From Kineococcus radiotolerans SRS30216 = ATCC BAA-149 (GTDB lineage: Bacteria; Actinomycetota; Actinomycetes; Actinomycetales; Kineococcaceae), in the NCBI RefSeq assembly GCF_000017305.1, contig NC_009664.2, positions 150,001 to 182,000 of the forward strand: 32,000 bases of DNA, read 5' to 3'. The notes under the pieces were generated by a model. It had not been told where the DNA came from. It saw nothing but the letters and a program-made list of their open reading frames with translations, and ran no database searches. A program made the position numbers and the translations under genes. Positions 4,958 through 32,000 of the stretch are shown piece by piece (the first letter of the stretch is position 1; the number at the start of each line of letters is the position of its first letter).

Positions 4958-4959
4958 GG

Positions 4960-6702: not shown

Positions 6703-6720
6703 CGGGTCCTGACCGCGCGG

Positions 6721-13704: not shown

Positions 13705-13810
13705 CGAGCTCAGCCACCCCGAACCCCCGCCGCGCGGCGACCGCCCCGCGCCCGCACCGCGGCGGGTCACCTCCATCGAGAACCCACCCCACGAGCCAGG
13801 AGCAGCCACC

Positions 13811-14368
13811 ATGACCACCACGACCACCACCCCCGGCACCACCACCACCGAGGTCGAGGAGCAGATCAAGGCGAACATCGCCAAGTCCATCTCGGAGATC
13901 CCCCACCCCGCCCTGCCCAAGGGCAGCAACATCTACGGTTCCACCAAGATCTTCCCGGACTACCAGGCCGAGGACGGCGAGACCTACTTCACCCTCGTGC
14001 ACGGCATCGCCCACGAGTCCTCGGTCAGCTTCGTCGCCGTCCTGCAGGCGACCCGCGCCCTGCGCAAGGGCTTCGAGTCCGCGATCTACTTCTACGGCCC
14101 CGGGTCGATGAACTGCATCGCCACCCGCGGGTTCCCCACCACGGGCGACTCCGGGTTCCCCGGCGAGCAGAACATCAACGGCGCCCTGGAGACGTTCATC
14201 AGGGAGGGCGGCACCGTCTACTGCTGCCGCTTCGGCCTGGCCCTGCACGGCAACCGCGAGGAGGACCTCATCGAGGGCGTCATCCCCTGCCACCCCCTCG
14301 ACGTGCAGGACGCGATCATCCACTACGCCCGCAAGGGCGCCATCATCAACTCCACCTACATGGTCTGA
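13811..14368 (+). CDS. Sll0783/MSMEG_0572-like nitrogen-starvation-response family protein (function unknown)
   Basis: 185 aa; AGGAG lies 9 nt upstream of the ATG. The sequence (IYGSTKIFPDYQAEDGETYFTLVHG...YFYGPGSMNC...GGTVYCCRFGLALHG) and its first position in the cluster fit the small conserved protein of Nit1C-type clusters. The family assignment is from memory. Very high GC3. Confidence 0.7.
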   Translation: MTTTTTTPGTTTTEVEEQIKANIAKSISEIPHPALPKGSNIYGSTKIFPDYQAEDGETYFTLVHGIAHESSVSFVAVLQATRALRKGFESAIYFYGPGSMNCIATRGFPTTGDSGFPGEQNINGALETFIREGGTVYCCRFGLALHGNREEDLIEGVIPCHPLDVQDAIIHYARKGAIINSTYMV

Positions 14369-14392
14369 TCCCCGCGGGCGAGGGGAACGACG

Positions 14393-15517: not shown

Positions 15518-15530
15518 AGGGGAGCGCCCG

Positions 15531-16970: not shown

Positions 16971-17908
16971 GCAGCACCGGAGCCGTGGGAACGACCAGAC
17001 TGGCCGCCGTGGCCGGGAACTTCGGCCGCGACCTCGAAGCCACGTACGCGCAGGTGGGCCGCGTCCTGGAGCGGGCCCGGGCCGACGGCACCGGGCTGGT
17101 CGCCTTCCCCGAGGCCTGCCTGGGGGGTTACCTCTCCAGCCTGGGCTCGGCCGAGGACAGGGGGACCGCGGCCAGCCGCCGCGGGCGTTCCGGACCGCCC
17201 GCGCTGACCCTGGACGGGCCGGAACTGCGACGGGTGCAGGAGATGGCCGGGGACGTCGTCGTGGTGGTGGGGATGTGCGAGGACGGCGGCCACGACCTGT
17301 ACAACACCGCCGTGGCGCTGACCGGCGACGGGATCCTCGGGGTGCACCGCAAGGTGCACCAGCCGCTGGGCGAGAACCTCACCTACGCCGCCGGTTCCGC
17401 CTTCGACGCGTTCGACACCCCCGTCGGGCGCATCGGTCTGCAGATCTGCTACGACAAGGCCTTTCCCGAGGCCGCTCGCGCCGCGGCCCTGGACGGGGCC
17501 GCCGTCATCGTCAGCATCTCGGCGTGGCCGGGTTCGCGCACCGCCGCCGCCGCCGACCTGGCCCGGGACCGCTGGCGCCTGCGCTTCGACCTCTACGACC
17601 AGGCCCGGGCGCTGGAGAACCAGGTCGTGTGGGTCGCCGCCAACCAGGCCGGGGAGTTCGGTTCGCTGCGGTTCGTCGGCAACGCGAAGATCGTCGGGCC
17701 CGGCGGGGAGGTCCTGGCCAGCACCGGGACGGACGCGGGCATCGCCGTCGCCGACGTCGACATCGAGCACGAATTGGCGCTCGCGCGGCGAGCCATGTTC
17801 AACCTGCGCGACCGCCGCCCCGATGCCTACGGCGCCGTCGTCGCCCCCAACGCCCACGCCGTCCCCGCTGTCCCCGCCGTTCAGGAGGAGGTCCCCAGCC
17901 TTGCCTGA
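16967..17908 (+). CDS. Nitrilase-superfamily carbon-nitrogen hydrolase (cluster nitrilase, catalytic triad intact)
   Basis: 313 aa; ATGA overlap with the upstream gene. Glu in VAFPEACLGGY (17111-17113), Lys in HRKVH (17351-17353), Cys in LQICYDKAFPE (17447-17449). Confidence 0.9.
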   Translation: MSSTGAVGTTRLAAVAGNFGRDLEATYAQVGRVLERARADGTGLVAFPEACLGGYLSSLGSAEDRGTAASRRGRSGPPALTLDGPELRRVQEMAGDVVVVVGMCEDGGHDLYNTAVALTGDGILGVHRKVHQPLGENLTYAAGSAFDAFDTPVGRIGLQICYDKAFPEAARAAALDGAAVIVSISAWPGSRTAAAADLARDRWRLRFDLYDQARALENQVVWVAANQAGEFGSLRFVGNAKIVGPGGEVLASTGTDAGIAVADVDIEHELALARRAMFNLRDRRPDAYGAVVAPNAHAVPAVPAVQEEVPSLA

Positions 17909-18245
17909 GACGACGTTCACGGTGCGCTGGCCCGACGAGACCGTGCAGCACTGCTACTCCCCCTCCCTCGTCGTCCACGACCACCTCGCGGTGGGCGCCG
18001 AGTACCCCGTCGCGGAGTTCCTCGCCCGCGCCGGCACCGCGCTGACCACCGCGAGCGAGCGGGTGCGGGCGAAGTACGGCATGGCCTGCACCTCGGCGAT
18101 GGCCCAGCTCGACGACCTGACCGCCCGCGCAGCGCGCTACGACCCCGCCGCCCCCGTGCGCGTGCTCGGGCTCGAACCGCCCCTCCCCCCGTCGACGCCC
18201 CCCGGACCCGCGCTGACGCAGCGACCCCCTGGAGCCACCCCGTGA
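17901..18245 (+). CDS. MSMEG_0570-like small conserved protein (function unknown)
   Basis: TTG at 17901 is preceded by AGGAGGAGG (17883-17891). It overlaps the nitrilase stop by 8 nt and is overlapped by the next gene's start (GTGA at 18242). Sequence: LPETTFTVRWPDETVQHCYSPSLVVHDHL...YGMACTSAMAQL. The track's 17823 start would overlap the nitrilase by 86 nt. Confidence 0.6.
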   Translation: MPETTFTVRWPDETVQHCYSPSLVVHDHLAVGAEYPVAEFLARAGTALTTASERVRAKYGMACTSAMAQLDDLTARAARYDPAAPVRVLGLEPPLPPSTPPGPALTQRPPGATP

Positions 18246-19579
18246 ACACCCCGCCGGCCACCACCCGTGAGCACCACCCCGTCGTCGTCGTCGGCGCCGG
18301 CCAGGCCGGGCTCTCCCTCAGCTGGCACCTCACCCGGCGCGGTGTCGACCACGTCCTGCTCGAACGCGGCACGACCGCCCACGAATGGCGCGACGGGCGC
18401 TGGGACGCCTTCACCCTGGTCACCCCCAACTTCCAGTGCCGCCTCCCCGGGTGGAGCTACACCGGGGAGTTCGCCGGCACCGACCCCGACGGGTTCATGG
18501 AACGCGACGAGGTGCACCGGTTCGTCACCGAGTACGCCCGTTCCTTCGCCGCCCCCGTCCGCGAAGGCGTGGCGGTCACCTCCCTGCGCCAGCACGGTGG
18601 CGGCTTCGCCCTCTCCACCAGCGCCGGGGAGTTCAGCGCCGACCAGGTCGTGATCGCCACCGGCGGTTACCACGTACCCGTCGTCCCCGCGGCCGCCGAG
18701 CGCCTCCCGCGCGACGTCGTGCAGTTGCACTCCTCCGCCTACCGCAGCGCGCAGCGGCTGCCCGAGGGCGCGGTCCTCGTCGTGGGCTCCGGGCAGTCCG
18801 GCGCCCAGATCGCCGAGGACCTGCACCTGGCCGGCCGCCGCGTCCACCTGGCCGTGGGGAACGCACCGCGGTGCGCCCGCACCTACCGCGGGCGCGACTG
18901 CATCGCGTGGCTGGAGGACATGGGGACCTACGACGTCACCGCCGGCGAGGTCCCCGGAGGCGCAGCCGCGCAGGAGAAGACCAACCACTACATGACCGGG
19001 CGCGACGGAGGTCGCGACATCGACCTGCGCGCCTTCGCCCGGGAGGGCATGGGCCTCCACGGGCGGCTGGAGGACGTGCGCGACGGCGTCGCCCGCTTCG
19101 CGCCGACGCTGGAGCAGGCGCTGGACCACGCCGACTCGGTGATGGAGTCCATCAAGGACGTCATCGACCGCCACATCAGCGCCCGGGGCATCGACGCGCC
19201 GAACGAGGCGCGCTACGTCCCCGTGTGGCGCCCCGAGCAGGAAGTCACCGAGCTCGACCTCGCCGCGGCGGGCATCACCTCGGTCGTGTGGAGCGTCGGC
19301 TACCGCGCGGACCACCGGTGGGTCGAGCTCGGGGTCTTCGACGGGCGCGGGCGCCCCCGCCAGACCCGCGGGGTCACCGGCACGCCGGGCCTCTTCTTCC
19401 TCGGGCTGCCGTGGATGCACACCTGGGGTTCGGGTCGCTTCGCCGGCATCGCCCGCGACGCGGAGTTCCTCGCCGACCAGCTGACCGCGGGCGCGGCTCG
19501 CCTCCCTCCGCCGTCCTCCCCCGCGTCCCGCCCCGCCTCGACGGGCCTCGCCGCGTCGCACCTCACCGCAGCCCGCTGA
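18242..19579 (+). CDS. FAD/NAD(P)-binding flavoprotein oxidoreductase (MSMEG_0569-like, class-B monooxygenase-like)
   Basis: 445 aa with two dinucleotide-binding motifs, VVVVGAGQAGLS and VLVVGSGQSGAQIA, and a C-terminal GLFFLGLPW. Confidence 0.85.
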   Translation: MNTPPATTREHHPVVVVGAGQAGLSLSWHLTRRGVDHVLLERGTTAHEWRDGRWDAFTLVTPNFQCRLPGWSYTGEFAGTDPDGFMERDEVHRFVTEYARSFAAPVREGVAVTSLRQHGGGFALSTSAGEFSADQVVIATGGYHVPVVPAAAERLPRDVVQLHSSAYRSAQRLPEGAVLVVGSGQSGAQIAEDLHLAGRRVHLAVGNAPRCARTYRGRDCIAWLEDMGTYDVTAGEVPGGAAAQEKTNHYMTGRDGGRDIDLRAFAREGMGLHGRLEDVRDGVARFAPTLEQALDHADSVMESIKDVIDRHISARGIDAPNEARYVPVWRPEQEVTELDLAAAGITSVVWSVGYRADHRWVELGVFDGRGRPRQTRGVTGTPGLFFLGLPWMHTWGSGRFAGIARDAEFLADQLTAGAARLPPPSSPASRPASTGLAASHLTAAR

Positions 19580-19581
19580 CC

Positions 19582-20694
19582 GTGCGGATCGCGCTCACGA
19601 CGTACTCCACGAAACCTCGCGGCGGCGTCGTCCACACCCTGGCGCTGGCCGAGGCGCTCGTCGAGGCCGGCGCCGAGGTGAGCGTCTGGACGCTGGGCCG
19701 CAGCGGTGACGCCGGCTTCTTCCGCCCCGTCGCCCCGCAGGTCGACGTCCGCGTCGTACCGTTCCCGGCTCGCGAGGGCGAGAGCGTCGGGGACCGCATC
19801 CTGCGCTCCATCGACGTCCTGCGGGCGGGGTTCGACCCCGCCGGCTACGACGTCGTCCACGCCCAGGACTGCATCAGCGCCAACGCCGTCGGGCGCTGCG
19901 TCCGCACCGTGCACCACCTGGACACGTTCACCACCCCCGCGCTGGCCGCCTGCCACGAACGGGCGATCGTCGAACCGTACGCGCACGTGTGCGTCTCCCG
20001 CGCGGTGGCCGAGGAACTGCGGGAGGGCTGGGGACTGGACCCCGTCGTCATCCCCAACGGCGTGCAGGCGCAACCCTTCACCGACGCGGCGGGCGACGCC
20101 CCCGCCGCAGCGGCGGCCCGCCGGCACTGGCAGGACCGGTTCGGGCGCTACGTCGTCGCCGTCGGCGGCATCGAACCGCGCAAGGGCAGCACCGACCTGC
20201 TGCGGGCCGTCGCCCTCCTGCGCCGGGAACTCCCCGACGTCGCCCTGGTGGTGGCCGGCGGGGAAACCCTCTTCGACTACCGGGACTACCGCGCCGAGTT
20301 CGACCGCCTCGCCGCCGAGCTCGACGTCGCCCCGCACGTCCTGGGCCCGGTCCCCACCGCGGACCTGCCCTCCCTGGTGGCGGGCGCCGCGGCCATGGGT
20401 TTCGTCTCCACCAAGGAGGGTTTCGGGTTGGCCGCCATGGAGGGTCTCGCGGCCGGGATCCCGCTGGTGACGCGGGACCTGCCCGTCCTGCGGGAGGTCT
20501 TCGACGGCGCCGCGGCCTTCGCCGTGGACCCCGCCTCCATCGCGACCGCCCTGCGCGACGCCGTGCTCCGCCCGGACTCCGACGTCCTGGTCGCGCGCCG
20601 GGCCGTCGGAGCCGATCTCGTCGCCCGGCACACGTGGGCGGCGGCCGCCCGAGCGCACCTGGAGTTCTACGCGGCTCTGGCCGAGTTCCCGTGA
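19582..20694 (+). CDS. GT-B (GT4-like) glycosyltransferase (MSMEG_0565-like)
   Basis: 370 aa from GTG 19582, 2 nt after the flavoprotein stop. MRIALTTYSTKPRGGVVHTLALAEAL-type N-terminus, and the EGFGLAAMEGLAAGIPLV retaining-GT motif (E-x7-E). Confidence 0.85.
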   Translation: MRIALTTYSTKPRGGVVHTLALAEALVEAGAEVSVWTLGRSGDAGFFRPVAPQVDVRVVPFPAREGESVGDRILRSIDVLRAGFDPAGYDVVHAQDCISANAVGRCVRTVHHLDTFTTPALAACHERAIVEPYAHVCVSRAVAEELREGWGLDPVVIPNGVQAQPFTDAAGDAPAAAAARRHWQDRFGRYVVAVGGIEPRKGSTDLLRAVALLRRELPDVALVVAGGETLFDYRDYRAEFDRLAAELDVAPHVLGPVPTADLPSLVAGAAAMGFVSTKEGFGLAAMEGLAAGIPLVTRDLPVLREVFDGAAAFAVDPASIATALRDAVLRPDSDVLVARRAVGADLVARHTWAAAARAHLEFYAALAEFP

Positions 20695-20748
20695 CGCCGG
20701 TGAGGACGACCGCCGGTGACGCGATCCGCCGGTGGGCGCAGGCCGGTG
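20695..20748. repeat. Phased direct repeats of (C)GCCGGTG at 16, 16 and 14 bp spacing in an intergenic gap
   Basis: cgccggtga at 20695, cgccggtga at 20711, cgccggtgg at 20727, ggccggtg at 20741. They lie in the 142-bp spacer between the glycosyltransferase stop and the second CN-hydrolase start. Confidence 0.7.
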
Positions 20749-20836
20749 CGGGAACAGGCGCTGACCCGCGCGGGCACCCGCGAGGCGCACCGCAGCCAGT
20801 GGTGCCCTGGCGCGCCGTCGACGGGAGGAACGTGCG

Positions 20837-21694
20837 GTGACGACGATCGGTGGGGTGTCTCGTCCTCTCCGGATCGCCGCGGCCGCGGCGCACTTCGGCC
20901 GAGACCTCGATCGGGGACTGGAGAAGGCGCTCGGCATCGTCGCCGCCGCCCGGCGCGGCGGCATCGACCTGCTGGTCCTGCCCCACGGGACGCTCGGTGG
21001 TTACCTCTCCGACCTCGAGGACCCGCGCAGCGATGAGGTTCCCCCGGCGCTGTCCGCCGACGCCCCGCAGATCGCCGCCGTCGCCGCGGCCGCGGGGCCG
21101 GTGACGGTGTGCCTGGGGTACACCGAGGTGGACGTCCTGCACGGGTACCCGTGCTACTTCAGCGCGGCGGTGTGCCTCACCGGCGACGGTGTCCTGGGTC
21201 GGCACCGGAAGGTGCACCAGCCCGCGGGTGAGGCCAAGGTGTTCTCCGCCGGTGACGGTTTCACCGCGTTCGACACCCCCGTGGGGCGGCTGGGGATGCT
21301 CATCGACTACGACAAGACGTTCCCCGAGGCGGGCCGGTCGCTGGCTCTGGCCGGGGCCCGGACGATCGCCTGCCTCTCCGCGTGGCCGGCCAGCGTCACC
21401 GACCGCGCCTCGCGCCTGCTCGCGGACCGTCAGTCCCGGTTGTTCGACCTCTACGACAGTGCCCGGGCGGCGGAGAACCAGGTCGTCTGGGTCTCCTCGA
21501 ACCAGACCGGGATCCAGGGGAACCTGCGTTTCCTCGGGCAGGCCAAGGTCGTCGGCCCCGGGGGCGACGTGCTGGCGCGGACCGGCTCCAAGGGCGCCCT
21601 GGCGGAGGTGCGGCTCGACGTGGAGCACGAGGTGACCCGGGCGCGCAGGACGTTGCACCACCTGGCGGAACGGCGCTCCGACACCTACCGGTAG
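20837..21694 (+). CDS. Carbon-nitrogen hydrolase paralog lacking the catalytic Glu and Cys (probable pseudoenzyme)
   Basis: 285 aa, collinear with the 16967 nitrilase (RHRKVHQP, NQVVWV and RFLGQAKVVGPGG are shared). However, FPEACLGGY is LPHGTLGGY (His codon 20984-20986) and ICYDKAFPE is LIDYDKTFPE (Asp codon 21305-21307). Confidence 0.85.
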   Translation: MTTIGGVSRPLRIAAAAAHFGRDLDRGLEKALGIVAAARRGGIDLLVLPHGTLGGYLSDLEDPRSDEVPPALSADAPQIAAVAAAAGPVTVCLGYTEVDVLHGYPCYFSAAVCLTGDGVLGRHRKVHQPAGEAKVFSAGDGFTAFDTPVGRLGMLIDYDKTFPEAGRSLALAGARTIACLSAWPASVTDRASRLLADRQSRLFDLYDSARAAENQVVWVSSNQTGIQGNLRFLGQAKVVGPGGDVLARTGSKGALAEVRLDVEHEVTRARRTLHHLAERRSDTYR

Positions 21695-21696
21695 TT

Positions 21697-22060
21697 TCCC
21701 GGCGCTGGAGAACCACCCCCGAAACACCGGGGTTCGAGGTCCGCAACTCCCTCCACCACGAGTTGCGGAGAAGCTGAGGCGGTTCGAGGTCGTACCCGCG
21801 GTCGAGGATGAGGTGCATGGGCGGGTACCAGGAGAGCTGTCGCAGCGGGTGCGGTCCCTGCTGCCGCTGCGCCCGTCGCACCGCTTCCGACGTCCCGGGC
21901 GACGGCCCGGGACGACCGCGCCCCGCCGGCCGGCGTCGTCCCGGTGTTGAAGATCACCTGCTGGCGGCTGCGGCCGGCGTGCTCGCCGATCCGCCACCGC
22001 GAACCACCCACCCCGTGGTGGCAGGAACGGTGAACCACCGCAGAGATCGGGGCCGCGTCC
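21697..22060 (-). mobile_element. Degenerate IS5/IS4-family DDE transposase remnant (frameshifted, truncated at both ends)
   Basis: One minus-strand frame reads GRSRQQVIFNTGTTPAGG, comparable to the GSKHHVITDAGGTPLAV block of IS5-like transposases. A second frame reads GRRPGRRKR and a third reads HLILDRGYDLEP (the DRGYD motif around the second catalytic Asp). No intact ORF and no downstream catalytic Glu region. It abuts the cluster's last stop codon. Confidence 0.4.
21740..21769. other. Perfect 10-bp-stem hairpin flanked by an 11-bp direct repeat
   Basis: tccgcaactc (21740-21749) pairs with gagttgcgga (21760-21769), with a 10-nt loop. ggttcgaggtc occurs at 21731-21741 and again at 21781-21791. 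The hairpin is 46 nt downstream of the second CN-hydrolase stop, so it may act as a terminator. Confidence 0.3.
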
Positions 22061-22754
22061 GACGTGTCCGCTGACGCATCTGATGGAAGGCCGTCACGAG
22101 CCCCCGCCTTGATTCAAGGCTCACCTGCTGTTGCATTCCTCGAGAACCGACACCGAAGGGACCACGAAACCAGCCTCACCGGATGGGAGAACCCAGCGGT
22201 GGAGCGACAGCCGCTTCGTCAGCGCTCGCGGTCAACGCCGTGAGCAGTCGCCTCCACGACCGGACGACCACCCGCCACGACGCACCCGATCTCCGACGGC
22301 ACCGGTGCGGCGGCCGAGCGCGCCGTCCTCGCCCTGACCACCGCACCCTGCACAGCCGGGCCCTGAACGGCGGCCCCACCGTCGGCGCCGCCGTGTCGAG
22401 CCCACCGTCCTGCGCCCACCGAACCGCACCTGAGCAACCCCACCCGTACGACCTCCCCGTCCGCGAGCGCGGGCTCAGCGGCCGCGGGAGCGGTGACGCG
22501 ATCGACGGGCGCGATCGACGACCTCGCCGGGGGCGGTGGTCTCGGCGGCGACGCTGCGGGGACGTCCTCGCGCACCGGAGGGGCGGACCGGGCCCGCGTC
22601 GTGCCCCACATCCCGTGCCATCCACGCGCCGGTGTGGCAGGCTCAGCGCAGAGCAGAACGTGACAGCCCGCCCAGCAGGTGAACACCCCGGCAGCACCAG
22701 CCGGGTTGACGAACCTCGGGCGAGCCGGGATCTGGAGCAGGCAGGAGTGACGAC

Positions 22755-23330
22755 GTGCCCCGCACCACCACCCGCGGCGATCGCACGGCCACCGGCATCG
22801 ACACCCGCCGCGCCGCCACCGTCGGCTTGACCTCCTTCGCCACCCTCACCCTGATCCCCCTGCTCACCCACGCCAAGCCCGGCGAACGCGCTCTCCTCCT
22901 GCTCGCCGCGGTCCCCACCGCCGTACTCCTCGGCTGCCTCGCCGGCTACGCCGCCGCCACCGCACCCGGCTCGGCGACCCGCCTCGACGTCGGGCAGCTG
23001 CACGCCGCGCAGCAGGGCATCGAGGTGCGGGCCGCTCACCTGCAGGCCGCCCGGCACGGCGCGTCCACCGCCGCTCAGCCCTCTGCACCGGTCCTCGAAC
23101 TCGTCAGCGACCCCGTTCCCCCGTCGGGGACCGGGTCGCCCGTGGGGAACGGTCCCCTCGCCGCCCTCCCCCGCCCCCCCGCGGACCAGCACCACGAGCT
23201 GCAGCTCGGGCTCCGCCTGGTGCCCGCCCCCACCCGGGAGGCTCCCGGCGCCGCTGCCGGAACTGCCACCAGCCGACCCGGCGACCGCGATCGCCACCTC
23301 ACCCTCGTCGTCACCCACCCCGCCAGCTGA
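22755..23330 (+). CDS. Hypothetical membrane protein (two predicted TM helices, Pro/Ala-rich tail)
   Basis: 191 aa. GTG is preceded by AGGAG (22742-22746). Very high GC3 in this frame. Hydrophobic segments VGLTSFATLTLIPLLTHA and ALLLLAAVPTAVLLGCLAGYAAA. I recognise no family. Confidence 0.55.
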   Translation: MPRTTTRGDRTATGIDTRRAATVGLTSFATLTLIPLLTHAKPGERALLLLAAVPTAVLLGCLAGYAAATAPGSATRLDVGQLHAAQQGIEVRAAHLQAARHGASTAAQPSAPVLELVSDPVPPSGTGSPVGNGPLAALPRPPADQHHELQLGLRLVPAPTREAPGAAAGTATSRPGDRDRHLTLVVTHPAS

Positions 23331-23532
23331 TCCAGCAGCCCGACCCAGCTCGAACGCCCGTCCCGGCGAGCGCAGCACCGCCGGGGTCACCTCCACGGAC
23401 CCGCCCAGTGCAGCAGAGCACCGAGCCCGGGGACACGGCCCACGAACCAGCGGGCCCGTCAGCGCACCTCTCCAGCCGCGTCGCCGCCACCTCTCGCACC
23501 CCACCCCTGGACTCCCCACCGGAGGACCCGCC

Positions 23533-23898
23533 ATGACCCAGATCCCCACCCACGAACCCGCGGACGCGGGCCACGTCGCAGGCCCCGGTGACGCCCGCGC
23601 GGGCTTCGAGATCACTCCCTCGACCGGCGCCGGGCGCGGCGGCGCGGGGGGCGACGTCGAGGACCTCGCCACCCGCGCCGCCCAGGCCCGCCAGACCAAC
23701 GCCCACCGCGCCACCTACGCCGCCGAAGCCCTCCACCGCCACGGCCAGGTCAGCCACAGCGACGCCGACGACATGCAGCGGGCCCTCGTCGAGCTGCTCA
23801 CCGACCTGCACCACCTCTGCGACACCTGCGACCTCGAACTCGCCCCCCTCTACGAAGCCGCCACCCTCATCCACACCCGCGAGACCCAGGCCGCCTAG
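23533..23898 (+). CDS. Hypothetical small protein (121 aa, acidic and His-rich)
   Basis: ATG is preceded by GGAGGA (23521-23526). GC3 is near 95%. The C-terminal half, ALVELLTDLHHLCDTCDLELAPLYEAATLIHTRE, looks structured. No recognisable domain. Confidence 0.6.
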   Translation: MTQIPTHEPADAGHVAGPGDARAGFEITPSTGAGRGGAGGDVEDLATRAAQARQTNAHRATYAAEALHRHGQVSHSDADDMQRALVELLTDLHHLCDTCDLELAPLYEAATLIHTRETQAA

Positions 23899-24134
23899 CC
23901 GGACCCCGTCACGCCCACCACGCCGGAGCCGCGCAGCACGGCGACACCTGAGCCGAGCGCGCTGCACCCGCGCCACCCCGCCAGCCGGTCTCAAGCGGAA
24001 CACGTCGGCAGACGGAGGCCACGGCCTCGCCCCCCCCGGCACGTCCTCCCCGGACACGACCAGTGCCGGTGGTCGTGGTGGTGACGTGCGTGGTCGCCTG
24101 CCGACCGGGTGAACGTCCCCGGTGAACCCGGCCC

Positions 24135-25529
24135 GTGTCGGTGGCGGTCGATACCGTCGAAATCGTGATCACCCCCTGGAGCGTCGAGCAGGTGCTCGCG
24201 CTGGCTCCCGACGCCTCGAGCGCCGCCGCTGGGCGCAAGCTCAGCGCGCCGGCCCCGTGGTCGCAGACCGGGGTCCTCGGTCCCGCCGGAGGGACGGGCG
24301 AGGCGCTGTGGGGGTTGTGCCAGGGGTCGGGCAAGACCCCGTACCAGACGGTCGTCGACCTGACCGGCCCGGCGTACAAGTGCTCCTGCCCCAGCCGCAA
24401 GTTCCCCTGCAAGCACGCTCTGGGCCTGCTGCTGCTGTGGGCCGGGGGAGCCGTCCCCGAAGCGAGCGCACCCGCCGCCTTCGGCGAGGCGTGGCTGTCC
24501 GCCCGCGCCGAGAAGGCCACGCACCCCGTGCCCCCCGCCCGGCCCGGCGCGCCGCCCGCGGACCCGGCCGCCGCCGCCCGCCGCGTCGAGCAGCGCGCCG
24601 CCCGCACCTCCGCGGGGGTCGAGGAGCTCTCGCGGTGGCTGCGCGACCAGGCCCGGACGGGGCTGGCGGGTGCGGACCACGCCGGCTACCAGCGCACCGA
24701 CCCGGTCGCCGCGCGCCTGGTCGACGCGCAGGCCGGTGCGCTCGCCACCGCCGTCCGCCGGCTCGCGCGGGTCGCGGTCAGCGGGCCGGACTGGTCCGCG
24801 CGCCTGCTGGAGGAGCACGCGATGCTCCACCTGCTGACCGCCGCCCACGCCCGCCTGGACACGCTGCCGGCGCCGCTGGCCGCCACCGTCCGCTCCCGCG
24901 TCGGTTACCCGGTGCGCACCGAGGACGTCCTCGCCGAGCCCGCCGTGCGCGACCGGTGGAGCGTGCTGGACCTGCGCGACCACGTCGAGGACCGGCTGGT
25001 CACCCGACGGGCCCACCTCGTGGGTGAGCGCACCGGGCGCACCGCGGTCGTGCTGTCCTTCGCCCCGCCCGGGCGGCCCCTGGACGCCTCCCTGGTGCCC
25101 GCCACCAGCATCGAGGCCGACCTGCACTTCCACCCCGGCGCGCACCCGCTGCGCGCGGTCGTCGGCGCCCGCCACGGCGACCCGGGCCCGCTGGGCGTCG
25201 TCGCGGCCGAGACGGTCGGGGCCGCGCACGCCCGGTGGGCCGGCGCGCTGGCCGCGGACCCGTGGTTGGGCGAACTGCCCGTGGTGCTCGCCGACGTCGC
25301 CCTCGCCGCACCCGTGGGGCACGCACCGACCACGCGCACCGCACCGGAACGGGACGGGTGGTCCCTGGTGGACACCGCCGGGCACGCCGCACCTCTCGCC
25401 GGGTCCGAGGGGGTGTGGACGGTGCTGGCCGTCACCGGAGGGCTGCCCTGCACGGTCGCCGGGGACTGGACCCCGGACGGGCTGCGGTTGAGCGCCGCCG
25501 TGACCGGGGAAGGGCTGGTCCGGCTGTGA
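24135..25529 (+). CDS. SWIM zinc-finger family protein
   Basis: 464 aa. CxCx6CxH SWIM signature YKCSCPSRKFPCKHALGLLLLW (24381-24416). N-terminal WSVEQVLALAPDASSAAAGRKL is typical of actinobacterial SWIM proteins that head this operon type. Confidence 0.85.
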   Translation: MSVAVDTVEIVITPWSVEQVLALAPDASSAAAGRKLSAPAPWSQTGVLGPAGGTGEALWGLCQGSGKTPYQTVVDLTGPAYKCSCPSRKFPCKHALGLLLLWAGGAVPEASAPAAFGEAWLSARAEKATHPVPPARPGAPPADPAAAARRVEQRAARTSAGVEELSRWLRDQARTGLAGADHAGYQRTDPVAARLVDAQAGALATAVRRLARVAVSGPDWSARLLEEHAMLHLLTAAHARLDTLPAPLAATVRSRVGYPVRTEDVLAEPAVRDRWSVLDLRDHVEDRLVTRRAHLVGERTGRTAVVLSFAPPGRPLDASLVPATSIEADLHFHPGAHPLRAVVGARHGDPGPLGVVAAETVGAAHARWAGALAADPWLGELPVVLADVALAAPVGHAPTTRTAPERDGWSLVDTAGHAAPLAGSEGVWTVLAVTGGLPCTVAGDWTPDGLRLSAAVTGEGLVRL

Positions 25530-27241
25530 CGACACCCGACGCCGCTGACGCCGGCCCCGCTCCCGTCGACGTCGCTCCCGTCGACACCGCTCCCGTCGGC
25601 ACCGGCGGAACCGCCGGCGGAGCGGGCTGGAACGCGCTCGTGGGGGCCGCTCTACTGGGCACCGACCGCCGCCCCGCCGAGCTCACCGCGCTGCCCGGCC
25701 CCGTCGCCGCGGCGCTGTCGGGGGTGCGGACCGCGACGGGCGGAGCGGACGCCGCGACCACCCTGCTCGACGCCGCCGCCCTGCTGACGACCTACCGCCG
25801 CGCCGGGCGTGCCCCGCTGCCCGGGCGCGCTCCCCTCCCCCCGGCGCCGAGCAGCGGTGAGCACCCGGTGCCGGCGGCCGCCGCCGTCCGCCTGGGCTCG
25901 CTGCTGGCCCGGCTGGACCCGGCCACCCGCGGCGGTGGTGGCAGCGGTCGAGCGGATCACCTGCTGCGGACGTGGCTGCACCTGGCGGAGGAGGCCGGCT
26001 GCACCGTCCCGCCACCGCGGTTGCCCGCCCTGCTGGACCTGGCCGTGCGGCGCACCGACGTCGCCGCGGCCCTGGCCCCCGTGCTCGGTGCGCGCGGCTG
26101 GTGGCTGGCCGCGCTGCGCGAGGACTGGAACGCCGCTGTCGGCCCCCACCGCGTCCCCGCTCAGCGCGACGGGCAGGAACAGGCCGCACCCGGACCGACG
26201 GCACAGGAACCGCCCGCACGGGAACCGAGCAGCACCTGGGAGCACGGCACCAGCGCCGAGCGCCGCGCCTGGTTGGGGCGGCTGCGCCACGGGGATCCGG
26301 CGGCGGCCCGCGCCGTGCTCCTGGCCTCGGCGTGGCGTTCGGAACGGGCGGAGGACCGCGTGGCCTTCGTCGCGGTGCTGGCCGACGGTCTCGCGGACGA
26401 GGACGAGGAGCTCCTCGAACGTGCCCGCGCCGACCGCAGCCTGGACGTGCGCCGCGACGCCGAACGGCTGCTCGCGCGGCTGCCGGCGGCGGCGTGGACC
26501 CAGCAGGTGCGCCGAGCCGCCACCGCCGCCGTGCACCTGGAGCGGCGCCGGCTGCGACGCACCCTCGTCGTCACCCTGCCCGACCCCGCCGACCCCGCTC
26601 TGCCCACCGTGAGCACCGGCAACGCCCCCGCCGGCGTCGGCCCGGGCACCTGGGCGCTGCAGCACCTCGTCGCGCTCACCCCGCCCGCCGCCTGGGAGGA
26701 GGCGCTCGGTGAGAGCGCCGAGCAGCTGGCGGCGCTGCCCGTCGACGGCGGTCTCGGCCCGGAACTGCACGGGGCCTGGGTGCAGGCCACGGTCCTGCAC
26801 CGCGACGCGCGCTGGGCACGGGCGCTGCTCGCCGCCGGTCGCCGCGCCGAGCACGACACGACGCTGCTGTCCGTGCTGCCGGCGGCCGAGCGGGTCACGG
26901 CCGTCGCGGGGCTCGTCGCCGCGGCCACGCGCACCGGGACCGGTGACGACGGCACCAGCGGCCGCGTCGGGGCGGCGGTCGCGTCCTGTCCCGCCCCGTG
27001 GCCGCAGCCGCTGGCCGACGCGGTCCTCGGCTGGCTCCTCGGCGCCGCCCGGCGCAGCCGCTGGGTGACCCACGACCTGCTGGAGCGGGCCGCGCACGCG
27101 CTGCCCGCCACCGCCGCCGGCGCCGACGCCCTCCGCACCGCCATCGACGCCCTGCCCGCCGACACCCCCTGGCGGGCCGCCCTGAGCGACGTCGCCGACA
27201 CCGTGGCCGAACGCCACCAGATGCTCGAGGAGCTCCGTTGA
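25526..27241 (+). CDS. Conserved hypothetical protein (DUF5691-like), Ala/Leu/Arg-rich, probably helical
   Basis: 571 aa from GTG 25526 (GTGA overlap with the SWIM stop). High GC3. No catalytic motif is visible. The DUF assignment comes from its position in the conserved SWIM/AAA/VWA operon and is from memory. Confidence 0.7.
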   Translation: MTTPDAADAGPAPVDVAPVDTAPVGTGGTAGGAGWNALVGAALLGTDRRPAELTALPGPVAAALSGVRTATGGADAATTLLDAAALLTTYRRAGRAPLPGRAPLPPAPSSGEHPVPAAAAVRLGSLLARLDPATRGGGGSGRADHLLRTWLHLAEEAGCTVPPPRLPALLDLAVRRTDVAAALAPVLGARGWWLAALREDWNAAVGPHRVPAQRDGQEQAAPGPTAQEPPAREPSSTWEHGTSAERRAWLGRLRHGDPAAARAVLLASAWRSERAEDRVAFVAVLADGLADEDEELLERARADRSLDVRRDAERLLARLPAAAWTQQVRRAATAAVHLERRRLRRTLVVTLPDPADPALPTVSTGNAPAGVGPGTWALQHLVALTPPAAWEEALGESAEQLAALPVDGGLGPELHGAWVQATVLHRDARWARALLAAGRRAEHDTTLLSVLPAAERVTAVAGLVAAATRTGTGDDGTSGRVGAAVASCPAPWPQPLADAVLGWLLGAARRSRWVTHDLLERAAHALPATAAGADALRTAIDALPADTPWRAALSDVADTVAERHQMLEELR

Positions 27242-28380
27242 CCGTCCCCACCACCAGCCCGGACCACGACGCGAACGGCGGGGGAACCGGCCGCCCCGAG
27301 GAGGCGGTGCTGCGACCGCACGCCGAGCAGGCCTTCGCCGCCGAGCTGGCCGCGCTGGCCGCCGCCGACGACCGGCCCCGTCCGCCGGCGTGGCGGCTGT
27401 CGCCGTGGGCGGTGACCACGTACCTGCTCGGGGGCGTCCTGCCCGACGGCACGGTCATCAGCCCCAAGTACGTCGGTCCCCGCCGCCTCGTCGAGGTGGC
27501 GGTCGCGACCCTGGCCACCGACCGGGCCCTGCTGCTGCTGGGGTCCCCCGGCACCGCCAAGACGTGGGTGTCGGAGCACCTCGCCGCGGCCGTCAGCGGC
27601 CGCTCCACGCTGCTGGTGCAGGGCACCGCGGGCACCGCGGAGGAGGCGATCCGCTACGGCTGGAACTACGCCCGACTGCTCGCCGAGGGACCCAGCGCCG
27701 CCGCGCTGGTGCCCTCGCCGGTGATGAGCGCCATGGAGCAGTCCGCCATCGCCCGCATCGAGGAGCTGACCCGCATCCCCTCCGACGTGCAGGACGCCCT
27801 GATCACCGTGCTGTCGGAGAAGACGCTGCCCGTCCCCGAGCTGGGGATCGAAGTGCAGGCGCGGCAGGGCTTCAACGTCATCGCCACCGCCAACGACCGC
27901 GACCGCGGCGTCAACGAGCTGTCCTCCGCGCTGCGCCGCCGCTTCAACACCGTCGTGCTCCCGCTGCCGGGGAGCGAGGACGAGGAGGTCGACATCGTCA
28001 CCCGCCGGGTCGCGCAGCTCGGCACCGCGCTGGAACTGCCTCCCGTGCCGGCGGCGACGGAGGAGATCCGTCGCGTCGTCACCATCTTCCGCGAACTGCG
28101 CTCGGGGCAGACCACCGACGGGCGCACCCGCCTGAAGAGCCCCTCGGGCACCCTCTCCCCCGCCGAGGCGATCTCCGTGGTGACCCAGGGGATCGCCCTG
28201 GCGGCGCACTTCGGCGACGGGCAGCTGCGCCCCCACGACGTCGCCGCCGGCATCCTCGGCGCCGTGGTCAAGGACCCCGTCGCCGACCGCGCCGTCTGGA
28301 CCGAGTACCTCGAAGCCGTCGTCCGCGAGCGCCGCGACTGGGCGCCGTTCTACCGCGCGTGCCGCGAGGTGAGCGGATGA
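27238..28380 (+). CDS. AAA+ ATPase, MoxR/AAA_5 (dynein-related) type
   Basis: 380 aa from TTG 27238 (TTGA overlap). Walker A LLLLGSPGTAKT (27541-27564), Walker B-like AIARIEELTR, then sensor/arginine region NVIATANDRDRGVNELSSALRRRF. Confidence 0.88.
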   Translation: MTVPTTSPDHDANGGGTGRPEEAVLRPHAEQAFAAELAALAAADDRPRPPAWRLSPWAVTTYLLGGVLPDGTVISPKYVGPRRLVEVAVATLATDRALLLLGSPGTAKTWVSEHLAAAVSGRSTLLVQGTAGTAEEAIRYGWNYARLLAEGPSAAALVPSPVMSAMEQSAIARIEELTRIPSDVQDALITVLSEKTLPVPELGIEVQARQGFNVIATANDRDRGVNELSSALRRRFNTVVLPLPGSEDEEVDIVTRRVAQLGTALELPPVPAATEEIRRVVTIFRELRSGQTTDGRTRLKSPSGTLSPAEAISVVTQGIALAAHFGDGQLRPHDVAAGILGAVVKDPVADRAVWTEYLEAVVRERRDWAPFYRACREVSG

Positions 28381-30758
28381 GCACGGGCACGCCCGGTGCC
28401 GCCGGTGCGTCCACCGGCGGCGCGGGCGCGGGTCCCGCGACGGCTGCCGTCGTGGAGGTCCTCGGGGTGCGCCACCACGGTCCCGGGTCCGCGCGTGCGG
28501 TCCGGGCCGCGCTGGAACGGCTGCAGCCCGACGTCGTCCTCGTCGAGGGCCCCGCCGACGCCGACCCGGTGGCCGCGCTCGTCGCCGACCCGGGCCTCGT
28601 ACCGCCCGTCGCGCTGCTCGCCCACGTCACCGACGCGCCCGGCACCGCGGCGTTCTGGCCGTTCGCGGTGTTCTCGCCGGAGTGGCAGGCGGTGGTGTGG
28701 GCGCACGAGCGTGGCGCGCGGGTCCGCTTCTGCGACCTGCCCTCCAGCACCAGCCTCGCCCTGCGCGACACCGGCACCGAGGACCCCGAGGACACCGAGG
28801 CTCCAGGAGGGTCGCAGCAGGACCTCGGGCAGGCCGCTGGGACCGAGCAGGCCGGGGAGCGCGGCGAACCCGACGCGGCGGCCCCGGCCCCTTCGGCGGA
28901 CCTGCTGGGCGTGCGCCGCGACCCGCTGGCCGCCCTGGCCGCCGCGGGCGGCTACGACGACCCGGAACGCTGGTGGGAGGACGTCGTGGAGTCCCGGCTG
29001 GACACCCCGACCCCCTTCGCCGTCCTCACCGAGGCGATGGCCGAACTGCGCGCCGCGGCACCCGCGCTGCCGGCGGCGCAGCAGCTCACCGAGGACCGCC
29101 GCGAGGCGCACATGCGTCAGGTGCTGCGCGAGGTCCTCAAGGGCGGGGCCCGGCGGGTCGCCGTCGTCTGCGGTGCCTGGCACGCGCCCGCCCTGACCGG
29201 GACGTTGCCCTCCGCCGCCTCCGACGCCCGCCTGCTGCGCGGGGCCCCGAAGCGGCGCACCAGCGTGACCTGGGTGCCGTGGACGCACTCCCGGCTCGCG
29301 CACGCCTCCGGTTACGGCGCCGGCATCACCTCCCCCGGCTGGTACCACCACCTGTTCACCGCCCGCGACGAGCCCGTCCCCCGCTGGCTGACCAGGGTCG
29401 CCGGGGTCCTGCGCGCGGAGGACCTGCCCGTCTCCAGCGCCCACGTCATCGAGGCCGTGCGGCTGGCCGACACCCTCGCCGTCCTGCGCGGACGGCCCCT
29501 GGCCGGGCTGGCCGAGGTCACCGAAGCCACCCGCGCGGTCATGACCGGAGGGGACGACGCCCTGCTCGCGCTCGTCACCGACCGCCTCGTGGTCGGCGAG
29601 GCCATGGGCTCCGTCCCCGAGGGGGCCCCCACGGTCCCGCTGGCCGCGGACCTGCGCGCGAGCGCCAAGCGGCTGCGGCTGGCGCAGGAGTCCGCCGAGC
29701 GGGGACTGGAACTGGACCTGCGCAAGGACACCGACGCCGCTCGCAGCCGCCTGCTGCACCGGCTGCGGCTGCTGGGCGTGGACTGGGGCGTGCCCACCCG
29801 CTCGCAGGTCCGCAGCACCGGGACCTTCCGCGAGGCGTGGCGGCTGGTGTGGGCGCCCGAGCTCGCCGTGTCGGTCGTGGAGGCCTCCCTGTGGGGCACC
29901 ACGGTGGCGGCCGCGGCGAGCGCGAAGGCGGTCTCCGACGCCGCGGGGGCCCCGCTGCCCGCGCTCACCGCGCTCGTCGAGCGGTGCCTGCTGGCCGACC
30001 TGCCCGAGGCCCTGCCGGTGGTGGTCGACGCGGTGGGTGAGCGCGCCGCGCTCGACCTCGACGTCGCCCACCTCATGGCGGCGCTGCCCGCGCTGGTGCG
30101 CGCCGCCCGCTACAGCGACGTCCGCGGCACCAGCGCGAGCGCGCTGACCGCCGTCGCGAGCGGCCTGCTCGTGCGCACCTGCGCGGCGCTCCCGGCGGCG
30201 GTCACCAGCCTCGACGACGCCGGAGCCACCGCGCTGCGCGCAGCGCTGGACGACGTGCACGCCGCGGTCCTCCTGTGGGAGGACCCCGACGCGAGCGAGC
30301 GGTGGTCGGCCGCGCTGGCCGGGGTCTCCGCGCGCACCGACGTCCACGGTCTGCTCACCGGCCGCACCACCCGCCTGCTGCGCGACACCGCGCGGTTGAG
30401 CCCGGCCGGAGCCGCCCGCCGACTCCGCCGCGCTCTCTCGGTCGGCACCCCCGCCCCCGCCCAGGCGGCCTGGGTCGAGGGGTTCCTCGGCCGCGACGGG
30501 CTGCTGCTGGTCCACGACGCGGACCTGCTCGCGCTGCTCGACGGCTGGGTGTGCTCCCTGCCGGAGCGGGAGTTCACCGAGGTCCTGCCGCTGCTGCGCC
30601 GCACCTTCGGCGCCTACGACCGCGGCGAGCGCCGCAGCATCGGCGACGCCGTCACCCGCCGCCCCACCACCACGACCGCCGCGGCCGCGGTGGTCGACGA
30701 CGCCCTCGCCCTGCCCGCGCTGCGCACCGCGGCGCTCCTGCTCGGAGGACCCGCGTGA
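28377..30758 (+). CDS. Large conserved protein (DUF5682-like) with an N-terminal TraB/PrgY/Tiki-like domain
   Basis: 793 aa from ATG 28377 (ATGA overlap). N-terminal VEVLGVRHHGPGSARAVRAALERLQPDVVLVEG, and later EDRREAHMRQVLREVLKGGARRVAVVCGAWHAPAL. Together these reproduce the GxxH...E...RD..M...GxxH pattern of TraB-family proteins. Confidence 0.75.
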   Translation: MSTGTPGAAGASTGGAGAGPATAAVVEVLGVRHHGPGSARAVRAALERLQPDVVLVEGPADADPVAALVADPGLVPPVALLAHVTDAPGTAAFWPFAVFSPEWQAVVWAHERGARVRFCDLPSSTSLALRDTGTEDPEDTEAPGGSQQDLGQAAGTEQAGERGEPDAAAPAPSADLLGVRRDPLAALAAAGGYDDPERWWEDVVESRLDTPTPFAVLTEAMAELRAAAPALPAAQQLTEDRREAHMRQVLREVLKGGARRVAVVCGAWHAPALTGTLPSAASDARLLRGAPKRRTSVTWVPWTHSRLAHASGYGAGITSPGWYHHLFTARDEPVPRWLTRVAGVLRAEDLPVSSAHVIEAVRLADTLAVLRGRPLAGLAEVTEATRAVMTGGDDALLALVTDRLVVGEAMGSVPEGAPTVPLAADLRASAKRLRLAQESAERGLELDLRKDTDAARSRLLHRLRLLGVDWGVPTRSQVRSTGTFREAWRLVWAPELAVSVVEASLWGTTVAAAASAKAVSDAAGAPLPALTALVERCLLADLPEALPVVVDAVGERAALDLDVAHLMAALPALVRAARYSDVRGTSASALTAVASGLLVRTCAALPAAVTSLDDAGATALRAALDDVHAAVLLWEDPDASERWSAALAGVSARTDVHGLLTGRTTRLLRDTARLSPAGAARRLRRALSVGTPAPAQAAWVEGFLGRDGLLLVHDADLLALLDGWVCSLPEREFTEVLPLLRRTFGAYDRGERRSIGDAVTRRPTTTTAAAAVVDDALALPALRTAALLLGGPA

Positions 30759-32000
30759 GCACCGACGGCCCCACCACGGGCACCACCGCCGAGACCGTCG
30801 GCACCACCACCGGCGAGGCCGAGGACGGGGCCCTCGCCCCGCTGGTCGACGACGCCGGCCGCGCCCGTCGCTGGCGGCTGCTGCTCGGCGACGCCGCGGA
30901 CGGGTGCGCCCCGCGCCTGGCCGGGGCGGACGCCGCGGTGGACGCCGCGCTGGCCGCGCTCTACGACGTCCCCGACGCGTCGGCGGGGACGCGGGGGCGG
31001 CGCTCCGCCGGCCTGGGCGGTTCCGCCCCGCGGGTGGCGCGGTGGCTGGGCGACATCCGCACCTACTTCCCCTCCAGCGTCGTGCAGGTCATGCAGCGCG
31101 ACGCCGTGGAACGGCTGGACCTGACGCGGCTGCTGCTGGAGCCCGAACTGCTCGGCGCCGTCCAGCCGGACGTGAACCTCGTCGGCACCCTGCTCAGCCT
31201 GAGCCGCGTCCTGCCCGAACGCACGAAGGAGACCGCGCGCCAGGTCGTCGCCGAGGTCGTGCGCCAGATCGAGGCCCGCGTCGCCGACCGCACCACCTCC
31301 GCGGTGACCGGGGCCCTCGACCGCGCCGCCCGCACCCACCGGCCCCGCCTCCCCGACGTGGACTGGAACGCCACGATCCGCGCCAACCTCACCCACTACC
31401 TGCCCGAGCACCGCACCGTGGTGCCCGAGCGGCTCGTCGGGCACGGCCGCCGCCAGCAGGTCGTGGCCAAGGAGGTCGTCCTGGAGATCGACCAGTCCGG
31501 GTCGATGGCCGAGTCCGTCGTCTACGCCAGCGTGTTCGGGGCGGTGCTGGCGAAGATGCGCACCCTGAAGACCACCCTCATCGCCTTCGACACCGAAGTG
31601 GTCGACCTCACCGATTCCCTCACCGACCCCGTCGACGTCCTCTTCGGTGTCCAGCTGGGCGGGGGGACCGACATCAACCGGGCCATCGCCTACGGGCAGG
31701 AACGCATCACCCGCCCCGCGGACACGTTGTTCTTCCTCATCAGCGACCTCTTCGAGGGCGGGGTCCGTGACGAGATGGTCAAGCGGATGGCGGCGATGAA
31801 GAGCGCTGGGGTCCAGGTGATCGTCCTGCTGGCCCTCTCCGACAGCGGTGCCCCCGCCTTCGACCGCGAGAACGCCGCCGCGCTGGCCGCACTGGGCATC
31901 CCCGCCTTCGCCTGCACCCCCGACGCGTTCCCCGACCTGCTGGCGCTGGCCATGACGGGCGGCGACGTCGGCGCGTGGGCGCAACGCGAGATCGCCGCGG
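30755..32000 (+). CDS. VWA domain-containing protein (3' end beyond the window)
   Basis: Absent from the ORF track (no stop in the window). GTG 30755 (GTGA overlap) is preceded by GGAGGA. My translation gives ...VARWLGDIRTYFPSSVVQVMQRDAVERL...KEVVLEIDQSGSMAES (MIDAS DxSxS, 31490-31504)...GGGTDINRAI...FFLISDLFEGG. The frame is open to base 32000. Confidence 0.85.
   Translation, partial: MSTDGPTTGTTAETVGTTTGEAEDGALAPLVDDAGRARRWRLLLGDAADGCAPRLAGADAAVDAALAALYDVPDASAGTRGRRSAGLGGSAPRVARWLGDIRTYFPSSVVQVMQRDAVERLDLTRLLLEPELLGAVQPDVNLVGTLLSLSRVLPERTKETARQVVAEVVRQIEARVADRTTSAVTGALDRAARTHRPRLPDVDWNATIRANLTHYLPEHRTVVPERLVGHGRRQQVVAKEVVLEIDQSGSMAESVVYASVFGAVLAKMRTLKTTLIAFDTEVVDLTDSLTDPVDVLFGVQLGGGTDINRAIAYGQERITRPADTLFFLISDLFEGGVRDEMVKRMAAMKSAGVQVIVLLALSDSGAPAFDRENAAALAALGIPAFACTPDAFPDLLALAMTGGDVGAWAQREIAA

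Follow-up and report, generated by a model that had tools for sequence, protein, structure and literature searches.

A conserved five-gene MoxR–VWA operon of Kineococcus radiotolerans and the putative TIKI/TraB/GumN-like domain of its DUF5682 protein

Five overlapping genes and their products

The DNA analysed here (the window) is a stretch of 32,000 nucleotides (nt) from Kineococcus radiotolerans SRS30216 (NC_009664.2, positions 150,001 to 182,000; ~76% G+C), whose proteins have Kineococcus proteins as their nearest relatives (81–84% identity). At its downstream end lies an operon of five consecutive genes on the + strand, designated g1 to g5, which encode a SWIM zinc-finger protein, a DUF5691 protein, a MoxR-type AAA+ ATPase, a DUF5682 protein, and a CoxE-type VWA protein, respectively. 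The product of g1 (24135..25529, start perhaps 24165) has 464 amino acids (aa) and matches Pfam SWIM (PF04434) with 27.1 bits against a cut-off of 19.6; that of g2 (25526..27241, 571 aa) matches DUF5691 (PF18944) over positions 2–491 of the 491-position profile (406 bits, E = 5e-121); that of g3 (27238..28380, 380 aa) matches AAA_5 (130 bits against a cut-off of 22, E = 6e-38); that of g4 (28377..30758, 793 aa) matches DUF5682 (PF18934) over positions 1–727 of 727 (889 bits, E = 4e-267); and that of g5 (30755..32000, the window edge) matches VWA_CoxE (PF05762) over aa 179–392 (171 bits against a cut-off of 26.4, E = 3e-50). An earlier note on this DNA, made from the letters alone, had named these genes and domains and had pointed to a 4-nt start/stop overlap at each junction; Pfam scores exceeded the curated cut-offs for all five products, and the sequence and independent gene calls agree on all four overlaps.

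The overlaps, all on the + strand, are GTGA at 25526..25529 (g1/g2, the upstream open reading frame (ORF) ending at 25529), TTGA at 27238..27241 (g2/g3), ATGA at 28377..28380 (g3/g4), and GTGA at 30755..30758 (g4/g5). Shine–Dalgarno-like motifs are located 6–12 nt 5' of the starts of g3 (GAGGAG, 7–12 nt upstream), g4 (GAGGTGA), and g5 (GGAGGA). In a frame plot of G+C at third codon positions (GC3), the coding frame changes exactly at the four junctions, in the order 3, 2, 1, 3, 2, and a GC3-based gene caller returned identical boundaries for the operon genes. Public contigs that encode an identical DUF5682 protein (L097) carry independently called genes of 464, 571, 380, 793, and 421 aa, with a 4-nt overlap at 4/4 junctions and a convergent NmrA-like gene directly after g5. 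Because these gene calls end with g5 and are then followed by a convergent gene, the operon consists of exactly five genes. The full-length g5 on the same contigs also shows that the window holds 415 of its 421 aa and stops short of the last six codons and the stop codon.

The start codons given here are inferred; for g4, a GTG at 28359 is an in-frame alternative. In the case of g1, the consensus of its homologues, MxxRWxxEQ, aligns at 24165 (residue V11) and not at 24135, and the AlphaFold2 model of the g1 product has a predicted local distance difference test score (pLDDT) below 50 for residues 1–7; the true start of g1 is therefore probably 24165 rather than 24135, while the public gene call retains 464 aa. 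No terminator-like site was seen inside the operon, in a promoter/terminator scan that is uninformative in such GC-rich DNA. None of the five proteins contains a transmembrane-like segment, so the encoded machine is most likely soluble and cytoplasmic.

The ATPase encoded by g3 is 41% identical to E. coli YehL over 356 aa, that is, over its full length (BLASTP, E = 1e-74), and sequence comparison makes it a member of the YehL subfamily, one of the seven recognised MoxR subfamilies and an uncharacterised one (PMC3893208). Its closest solved relatives are the AAA modules of Midasin (E = 2.6e-13) and NorQ (E = 2.7e-7). The Walker A motif GSPGTAKT (aa 102–109; 27541..27564, + strand) is conserved at 100% over GxPGTAK in 79 sequences including YehL, with T in 87% at the final T/S position; in the same set, the Walker B motif R-x-E-E (aa 173–176; 27754-27765, + strand), the sensor-1 residue Asn219, and R233–R235 are conserved at ~100%. 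A VWA_CoxE gene lies two genes downstream of g3, and this association is kept in all loci. The VWA protein g5 is 36% identical to E. coli YehP (BLASTP, E = 4e-76), and its metal-ion-dependent adhesion site (MIDAS) motif D246-Q-S-G-S250 (31490..31504, + strand) is completed by T305 and D331; D246, S248, S250, and D331 are conserved at 100% and T305 at 99% in 78 sequences including YehP. Both motif sets, ATPase and MIDAS, are predicted to be competent.

The SWIM protein g1 (AlphaFold2 model, pLDDT 92) consists of an N-terminal SWIM module, a helical middle part (aa 115–266), and a C-terminal beta-rich domain (aa 271–463). Its zinc finger of the form CxC...CxH (aa 75–100; 24357..24434, + strand) is supported by the Pfam match, and C83, C85, C92, and H94 are invariant in 76 homologues. 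A Foldseek search of the g1 model against the PDB gave no significant match (all E >0.1); the weak, non-significant top matches of the C-terminal domain are tandem OB/HIN proteins that bind single-stranded or double-stranded DNA, beta-barrels, and EF-P. Sequence or profile searches found no PDB relatives of g1, g2, g4, g5, or the N-terminal domain of g4. The DUF5691 protein g2 is the fastest-evolving component. On a plasmid of Hymenobacter sp. HDW8, a g1-type SWIM protein and DUF5691 form a single protein of 1009 aa (L093:2189-5218), in which both parts are full-length (SWIM protein, E = 5e-112; DUF5691, E = 9e-71); such a Rosetta-stone fusion is an argument for g1 and g2 working as a single unit.

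A core triad with alternative accessory modules

Relatives of g4 are encoded in at least 589 species genomes, and among the 80 best related loci the order g1-g2-g3-g4-g5 is conserved, which bears out the earlier note's statement that the gene set is widespread in actinomycetes. The five families occur together in all of the 72 loci with complete flanks, in which co-occurrence was counted. Two kinds of apparent exception to the five-gene set were both resolved: eight loci carry a shortened form of DUF5691 (250–410 aa), and five Streptomyces/Kitasatospora loci are rearranged, with the SWIM–DUF5691 genes on the opposite strand and divergent from the AAA–DUF5682–VWA genes. Across actinomycete loci, identity falls from ~80% for the ATPase and ~70% for the VWA protein to ~55% for DUF5682, ~47% for the SWIM protein, and ~31% for DUF5691.

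The overlaps at the gene junctions are likewise widely kept. They recur in 34/60 related loci at g1/g2, 59/64 at g2/g3, 50/80 at g3/g4, and 42/79 at g4/g5 (57%, 92%, 63%, and 53%), against a background of 18% (53/297) at other same-strand junctions of the related loci. Tight coupling is thus a conserved trait, as the overlaps recur at the same junctions well above background. The earlier note had gone further and read the overlaps as an obligatory co-translation of all five proteins; this does not hold, because of the divergent arrangement in Streptomyces and Kitasatospora and a gap of 10 nt between yehL and yehM in E. coli.

Beyond the actinomycetes, Deinococcus and Rhizobium have an identical five-gene order, and Methylosinus has the first four genes in the same order, the VWA gene not being listed in an incomplete PLSDB table. 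On plasmid pOB3b3 of Methylosinus trichosporium OB3b (L095), IS66-family transposase genes lie ~3 kb on from DUF5682 (downstream of 9223); the missing VWA entry reflects either disruption of the operon or gaps in the PLSDB gene table. An additional small annotated ORF separates the AAA gene from the DUF5682 gene in Deinococcus (L092:6762-6998, 78 aa) and in Hymenobacter (L093:6368-6979, 203 aa); the operon in the window has no such ORF. In one metagenome-assembled genome (L072, CAVQSC010000040.1, ~8800–12100), the g3/g4 region translates poorly, with g3 49% identical and the N-terminal domain of g4 out of register after ~100 aa, which suggests a frameshift or an assembly error.

Homology of the operon to yehLMPQ of E. 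coli had also been proposed, and this was borne out for YehL, YehM, and YehP, whose Pfam families are those of g3, g4, and g5. YehM is a homologue of the DUF5682 protein (BLASTP, E = 3e-30) and has the same putative catalytic motifs as g4; this triad keeps the gene order of the Kineococcus operon, the E. coli genes lie close together, and a SWIM-finger protein is present. The proposal failed for YehQ, which lies downstream of the triad: in hhalign, the g1 profile aligns with YehQ over the zinc finger only, and the DUF5691 profile shows no relationship to YehQ, so that YehQ was rejected as a fused or orthologous equivalent of g1 and g2. No DUF5691 was detectable in E. coli, and no DUF4132 among the window genes scanned. 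In place of DUF5691, the E. coli cluster, yehI-(yehK)-yehL-yehM-yehP-yehQ, has upstream the 1210-aa DUF4132 protein YehI (L001:5280-8912), and the DUF5691 profile again showed no relationship by hhalign to the DUF4132 pair that YehI forms with the Bacillus mycoides protein. A megaplasmid of B. mycoides (L096) has the same arrangement, DUF4132-AAA-DUF5682-VWA-SWIM; its DUF4132 protein (L096:1827-5261) is a homologue of YehI (E = 3e-47), and its SWIM protein is YehQ-like. In Bacillus the DUF4132 gene directly precedes the core genes, and in E. coli yehK lies in between; its upstream position in both suggests that YehI belongs to the yeh-type system. Further upstream of the E. coli cluster are the WGR gene yehF and the pseudogene yehH. 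The yehLMPQ genes are present in 5353/5426 complete E. coli genomes (98.7%), single-copy and chromosomal, and yehL and yehM are repressed by H-NS (PMC3686432).

Because E. coli and B. mycoides keep the triad with a different accessory set, the system is an invariant core of a YehL-type MoxR ATPase, DUF5682, and a VWA protein, combined with one of two alternative accessory modules: SWIM plus DUF5691 or, in E. coli and Bacillus, DUF4132 plus a YehQ-type SWIM protein.

The N-terminal domain of DUF5682

The DUF5682 family is large, with 4151 relatives at E <= 1e-3 when one representative is taken per 50%-identity cluster. The g4 protein is laid out as an N-terminal alpha/beta domain, a small alpha+beta domain (aa 420–490), and C-terminal helical repeats (aa 495–790), and its AlphaFold2 model has a pLDDT of 86 and a predicted template modelling score of 0.82. 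The N-terminal domain (aa 25–310; 28449..29306, + strand) is a putative TIKI/TraB/GumN-like hydrolase, as judged from conserved motifs and hhalign comparisons. The motifs are G30-x-R-H33-H34, E57, S100-P-E102, D120, R242-E243-A-x-M246, and G266-x-W-H269, with the consensus GxRHH, L[IL]E[GC], SPE, D[LW]P, REAxM, and G[AG][WF]H; their residues are invariant in 74 homologues and are kept across six phyla and in both architectural variants. A variable, disordered, acidic insert occupies aa 135–171.

The active site of TIKI-family enzymes is described as two His and two Glu together with a conserved Arg, set on a core of parallel beta-sheet; the corresponding residues of RRSP are H3902, E3930, R4001, and H4030, and TIKI-fold enzymes include toxins (PMC6254334). 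Like the members of the TIKI/TraB/PrgY/GumN/erythromycin-esterase superfamily (e.g., YbaP, Tiki, RRSP, EreB, and ChaN), the N-terminal domain of DUF5682 combines a pair of GxxH motifs with a Glu that follows the second strand and with a helix, ~27 residues ahead of the second GxxH, that contains an Arg; this motif composition matches the 2His/2Glu plus Arg active site. The secondary-structure order of the AlphaFold2 model, beta1-GxxH-alpha-beta2-E ... R-helix-beta-GxxH, is compatible with TIKI. We compared profiles by hhalign, using a TraB/GumN profile that combined E. coli YbaP with eight homologues from plasmids. The DUF5682 N-terminal domain scored 33.5 (P = 7.6e-4), and 36.1 (P = 3.5e-4) with cross-phylum sequences added. 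Controls with shuffled columns reached 14 ± 2.7, the maxima of the two runs being 29.4 and 22.9 (14.2 ± 2.6, maximum 22.9, in the run with the score of 36.1), so that none of 300 shuffles (0/200 plus 0/100) reached the real score, and a reversed-profile control scored 14.9. The extended alignment with YbaP is colinear, pairing G30xxH33 with GSIH41, E57 with E67, R242 with the RN motif, and G266xxH269 with GALH252. Weak, sub-threshold matches to Pfam TraB_PrgY_gumN were found in 5/26 DUF5682 members, and this was the most recurrent non-self Pfam family.

Several points weigh against this assignment. On the g4 domain itself, the Pfam TraB_PrgY_gumN match reaches 14.4–14.6 bits (E = 0.03), below the gathering cut-off of 26.8; the hhalign probability is 25–37%, below the usual standard of 90%; the statistically significant segment spans the second motif region only; and the link to TraB/TIKI, as profiles reveal it, is remote. 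Some TIKI-fold proteins, such as ChaN and PMT, are non-catalytic. DUF5682 is also unlike the TIKI superfamily in that a large helical and disordered insertion separates the halves of its N-terminal domain, a helical-repeat region of ~300 aa is fused to it, and its gene lies inside a MoxR–VWA operon, a setting in which the literature searched describes no TIKI-family protein. On balance, we regard homology of the DUF5682 N-terminal domain to TraB/GumN/TIKI as probable.

Genomic context and possible functions

No additional conserved neighbour of the operon was found across the 80 loci, no flanking protein cluster occurring in more than 23 of them; the flank clusters that do recur reflect lineage-specific synteny, and the Pfam content of the flanks is heterogeneous. 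Because it has no extra conserved neighbour, the module is self-contained. The earlier note had suggested an accessory or defence-island context for it, which the distribution does not support. The flanking genes of 20 diverse loci are ordinary metabolic or housekeeping genes, and PADLOC models matched only a few of the 135 flanking proteins, namely generic helicases, kinases, or methylases. The five proteins themselves have no significant match in PADLOC-DB v2, the sole entry being a 13-bit partial IetA match at the P-loop region of the ATPase, and the bpMoxR Pfam score of g3 is 24.3 bits, below the cut-off of 27. No beta-propeller, VMAP, kinase, FHA, or effector-associated domain was found in the five proteins, nor such partners in the conserved flanks. 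DUF5682 relatives are nearly absent from mobile DNA: they occur in 17/72,556 plasmid records, mostly megaplasmids and 16 of them non-mobilizable, in 1/50,697 phage records (MT835988.1), and on one IMG/VR contig (L091, IMGVR_UViG_2562617057_000009). The protein on the latter matches E. coli YehM at every motif region compared, and the phage record, 14 kb long and derived from human faeces, is unannotated; each is probably bacterial DNA that ended up in a viral bin. Membership in a catalogued defence system was accordingly rejected on the PADLOC, mobility, and E. coli pan-genome checks, the last being the presence in 5353/5426 genomes given above. The operon is not a mobile defence island, and its distribution is chromosomal and non-mobile.

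Upstream of the operon in the window, a biosynthetic-looking cluster is followed by ~2.4 kb of poorly coding DNA (21695-24134) with a strongly negative GC skew (-0.26) and two orphan ORFs without Pfam matches (22755-23330 and 23533-23898). This DNA had been taken for the scar of an insertion sequence, a reading that found no support: a Pfam scan of the ORFs in the 21.7–24.1 kb region revealed no transposase domains, and we found no convincing terminal inverted repeats, no mobile-element similarity by plasmid BLAST, and no Rfam match there. The cluster upstream (12883-21694, + strand) encodes an amidohydrolase, a radical SAM enzyme, an AIR-synthase-like/GNAT fusion, two CN hydrolases, a flavin monooxygenase, and a GT4 glycosyltransferase that passes Pfam 'GT4-conflict' (29.3 bits against a cut-off of 26), together with a 185-aa orphan (13811-14368) of unusually low first-position GC; it may be a small-molecule or modified-peptide cluster. 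The region at 2029-12661, with two PucR-type regulators, a cytosine/purine permease, an adenosine deaminase, a luciferase-like monooxygenase, and a MobA-like NTP-transferase, resembles a purine-catabolism neighbourhood.

We tentatively interpret the operon as encoding a cytoplasmic, ATP-driven MoxR–VWA machine, a remodeller that gates a TIKI-like DUF5682 hydrolase. A hexameric ring of the MoxR protein g3 would spend ATP to pull on or remodel the VWA adaptor g5, whose MIDAS site would grip an acidic residue of a partner; this remodelling would gate the DUF5682 hydrolase, most likely a site-specific peptidase or esterase, or deliver substrate to it. The helical-repeat part of DUF5682 would be the scaffold to which the putative hydrolase domain is attached, and the exchangeable, SWIM-containing module would supply target recognition or regulation. 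This mechanism is drawn by analogy with CbbQ/CbbO, NorQ/NorD, RavA/ViaA, and Midasin; complex formation, hydrolase activity, and the direction of regulation are inferred, and DUF5682 could instead be a client of the MoxR–VWA pair rather than its effector, which would count against the proposed gating. A wider and more doubtful generalisation is that the triad represents an unrecognised class of ATP-gated intracellular TIKI-family protease/esterase complexes, present in E. coli, actinomycetes, Deinococcus, Bacteroidota, and Bacillota, in which SWIM-containing modules would choose the substrate.

Every experimentally studied MoxR–VWA pair is a maturation or activation chaperone (PMC3893208), and the operon might likewise encode a chaperone dedicated to the maturation of, or cofactor insertion into, a client enzyme whose gene is unlinked, in the manner of CoxD/CoxE, NorQ/NorD, and CbbQ/CbbO. 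The DUF5682, DUF5691, and SWIM proteins would then have no catalytic role and act as scaffolds or adaptors, and the TIKI-like pocket would be a non-hydrolysing site for a cofactor or metal (ChaN, for example, binds haem). The resemblance to these pairs and to RavA/ViaA is considerable: a MoxR AAA+ protein with intact Walker A and B, sensor 1, and Arg residues is encoded near a VWA protein with a complete MIDAS, the latter belongs to the CoxE Pfam family, and NorQ is a detectable relative of g3. The core-genome status in E. coli, the housekeeping flanks, and the high conservation of the ATPase and VWA proteins also suit a chaperone. We nevertheless consider it rather improbable, as three further large proteins, one of them enzyme-like, are strictly co-inherited with the pair, and the full 2His/Glu/Arg set kept across six phyla fits an active enzyme better than a binding pocket. 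Known chaperone pairs usually adjoin the gene of their client, whereas no client enzyme gene adjoins the operon in any lineage or is conserved beside it in the 80 loci.

Signal transduction is another role of MoxR–vWA pairs, both in ternary conflict systems that have been predicted (Kaur et al. 2020, PMC7159879) and in the Actinomycetota Esr pathway (PMC13622651), and the operon may be an NTP-dependent conflict or anti-phage system of this kind, in which SWIM/DUF5691 (or DUF4132) senses, the MoxR–VWA pair transduces, and a TIKI-like DUF5682 is the proteolytic effector (cf. RRSP). It shares with these systems the combination of MoxR and vWA with variable, faster-evolving partners (31–47% identity for the accessory proteins against ~80% for the ATPase), and the exchangeable accessory module, the H-NS repression of yehL and yehM, and the toxins among TIKI-fold enzymes point in the same direction. 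Still, we hold such a role to be unlikely, since the operon is core and chromosomal rather than patchy, lacks the beta-propeller, VMAP, kinase, FHA, and effector-associated domains of conflict systems, has a sub-threshold bpMoxR score, is absent from PADLOC, shows no enrichment of defence genes in its flanks, and is almost absent from plasmids, phages, and viral contigs; SWIM has 0 occurrences in PMC7159879. The Esr pathway was also considered as a published characterisation of this operon and was rejected, its partner proteins being different. Most improbable to us is a Midasin-like remodeller of nucleic acids or ribonucleoproteins (RNPs), in which the SWIM finger and OB-like barrels of g1 would bind DNA, RNA, or RNP and the MoxR–VWA pair would extract or remodel a bound protein. 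Among solved structures, the Midasin AAA modules come closest to g3 in sequence, the weak top Foldseek matches of the g1 C-terminal domain include DNA-binding tandem OB/HIN proteins and EF-P, and a WGR-domain gene lies upstream of the E. coli cluster. Yet those Foldseek matches all have E >0.1, SWIM fingers mediate protein–protein contacts too, actinomycete flanks show no recurrence of WGR or DUF4132 genes, and the conserved set is without a nuclease, helicase, or other nucleic-acid enzyme.

The gene families are already catalogued, as two Pfam DUFs and the YehL subfamily, and the earlier note's statement that the operon type has no experimentally assigned function stands: in the literature searched, we found no published characterisation of it, no published function for DUF5691, DUF5682, PF18934, or PF18944, no functional work on yehLMPQ, and no function assigned to the YehL subfamily. 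What is new is the core triad with its alternative accessory modules, the likely membership of YehI in the E. coli variant, the SWIM–DUF5691 fusion, and the probable TIKI/TraB-like assignment of DUF5682. MoxR–VWA pairs are a widespread and poorly understood class of AAA+ chaperones, and the gap that the YehL subfamily leaves in it sits in the core genome of E. coli. The adjacency of MoxR and VWA genes should not by itself be taken as a defence system. The invariant triad, the exchangeable and once-fused module, and the TIKI/TraB-like motif set yield a testable model, which singles out H33, E57, R242, and H269 of DUF5682 together with the Walker B and MIDAS residues. If the hydrolase idea is true, it would be a new coupling of an AAA+ motor to a non-canonical peptidase or esterase, and four or five E. 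coli y-genes, as well as two Pfam DUFs with thousands of members, would gain a function; if the triad is indeed an ATP-gated TIKI-family complex, it would add a new regulated processing machine beside the known AAA+ proteases.

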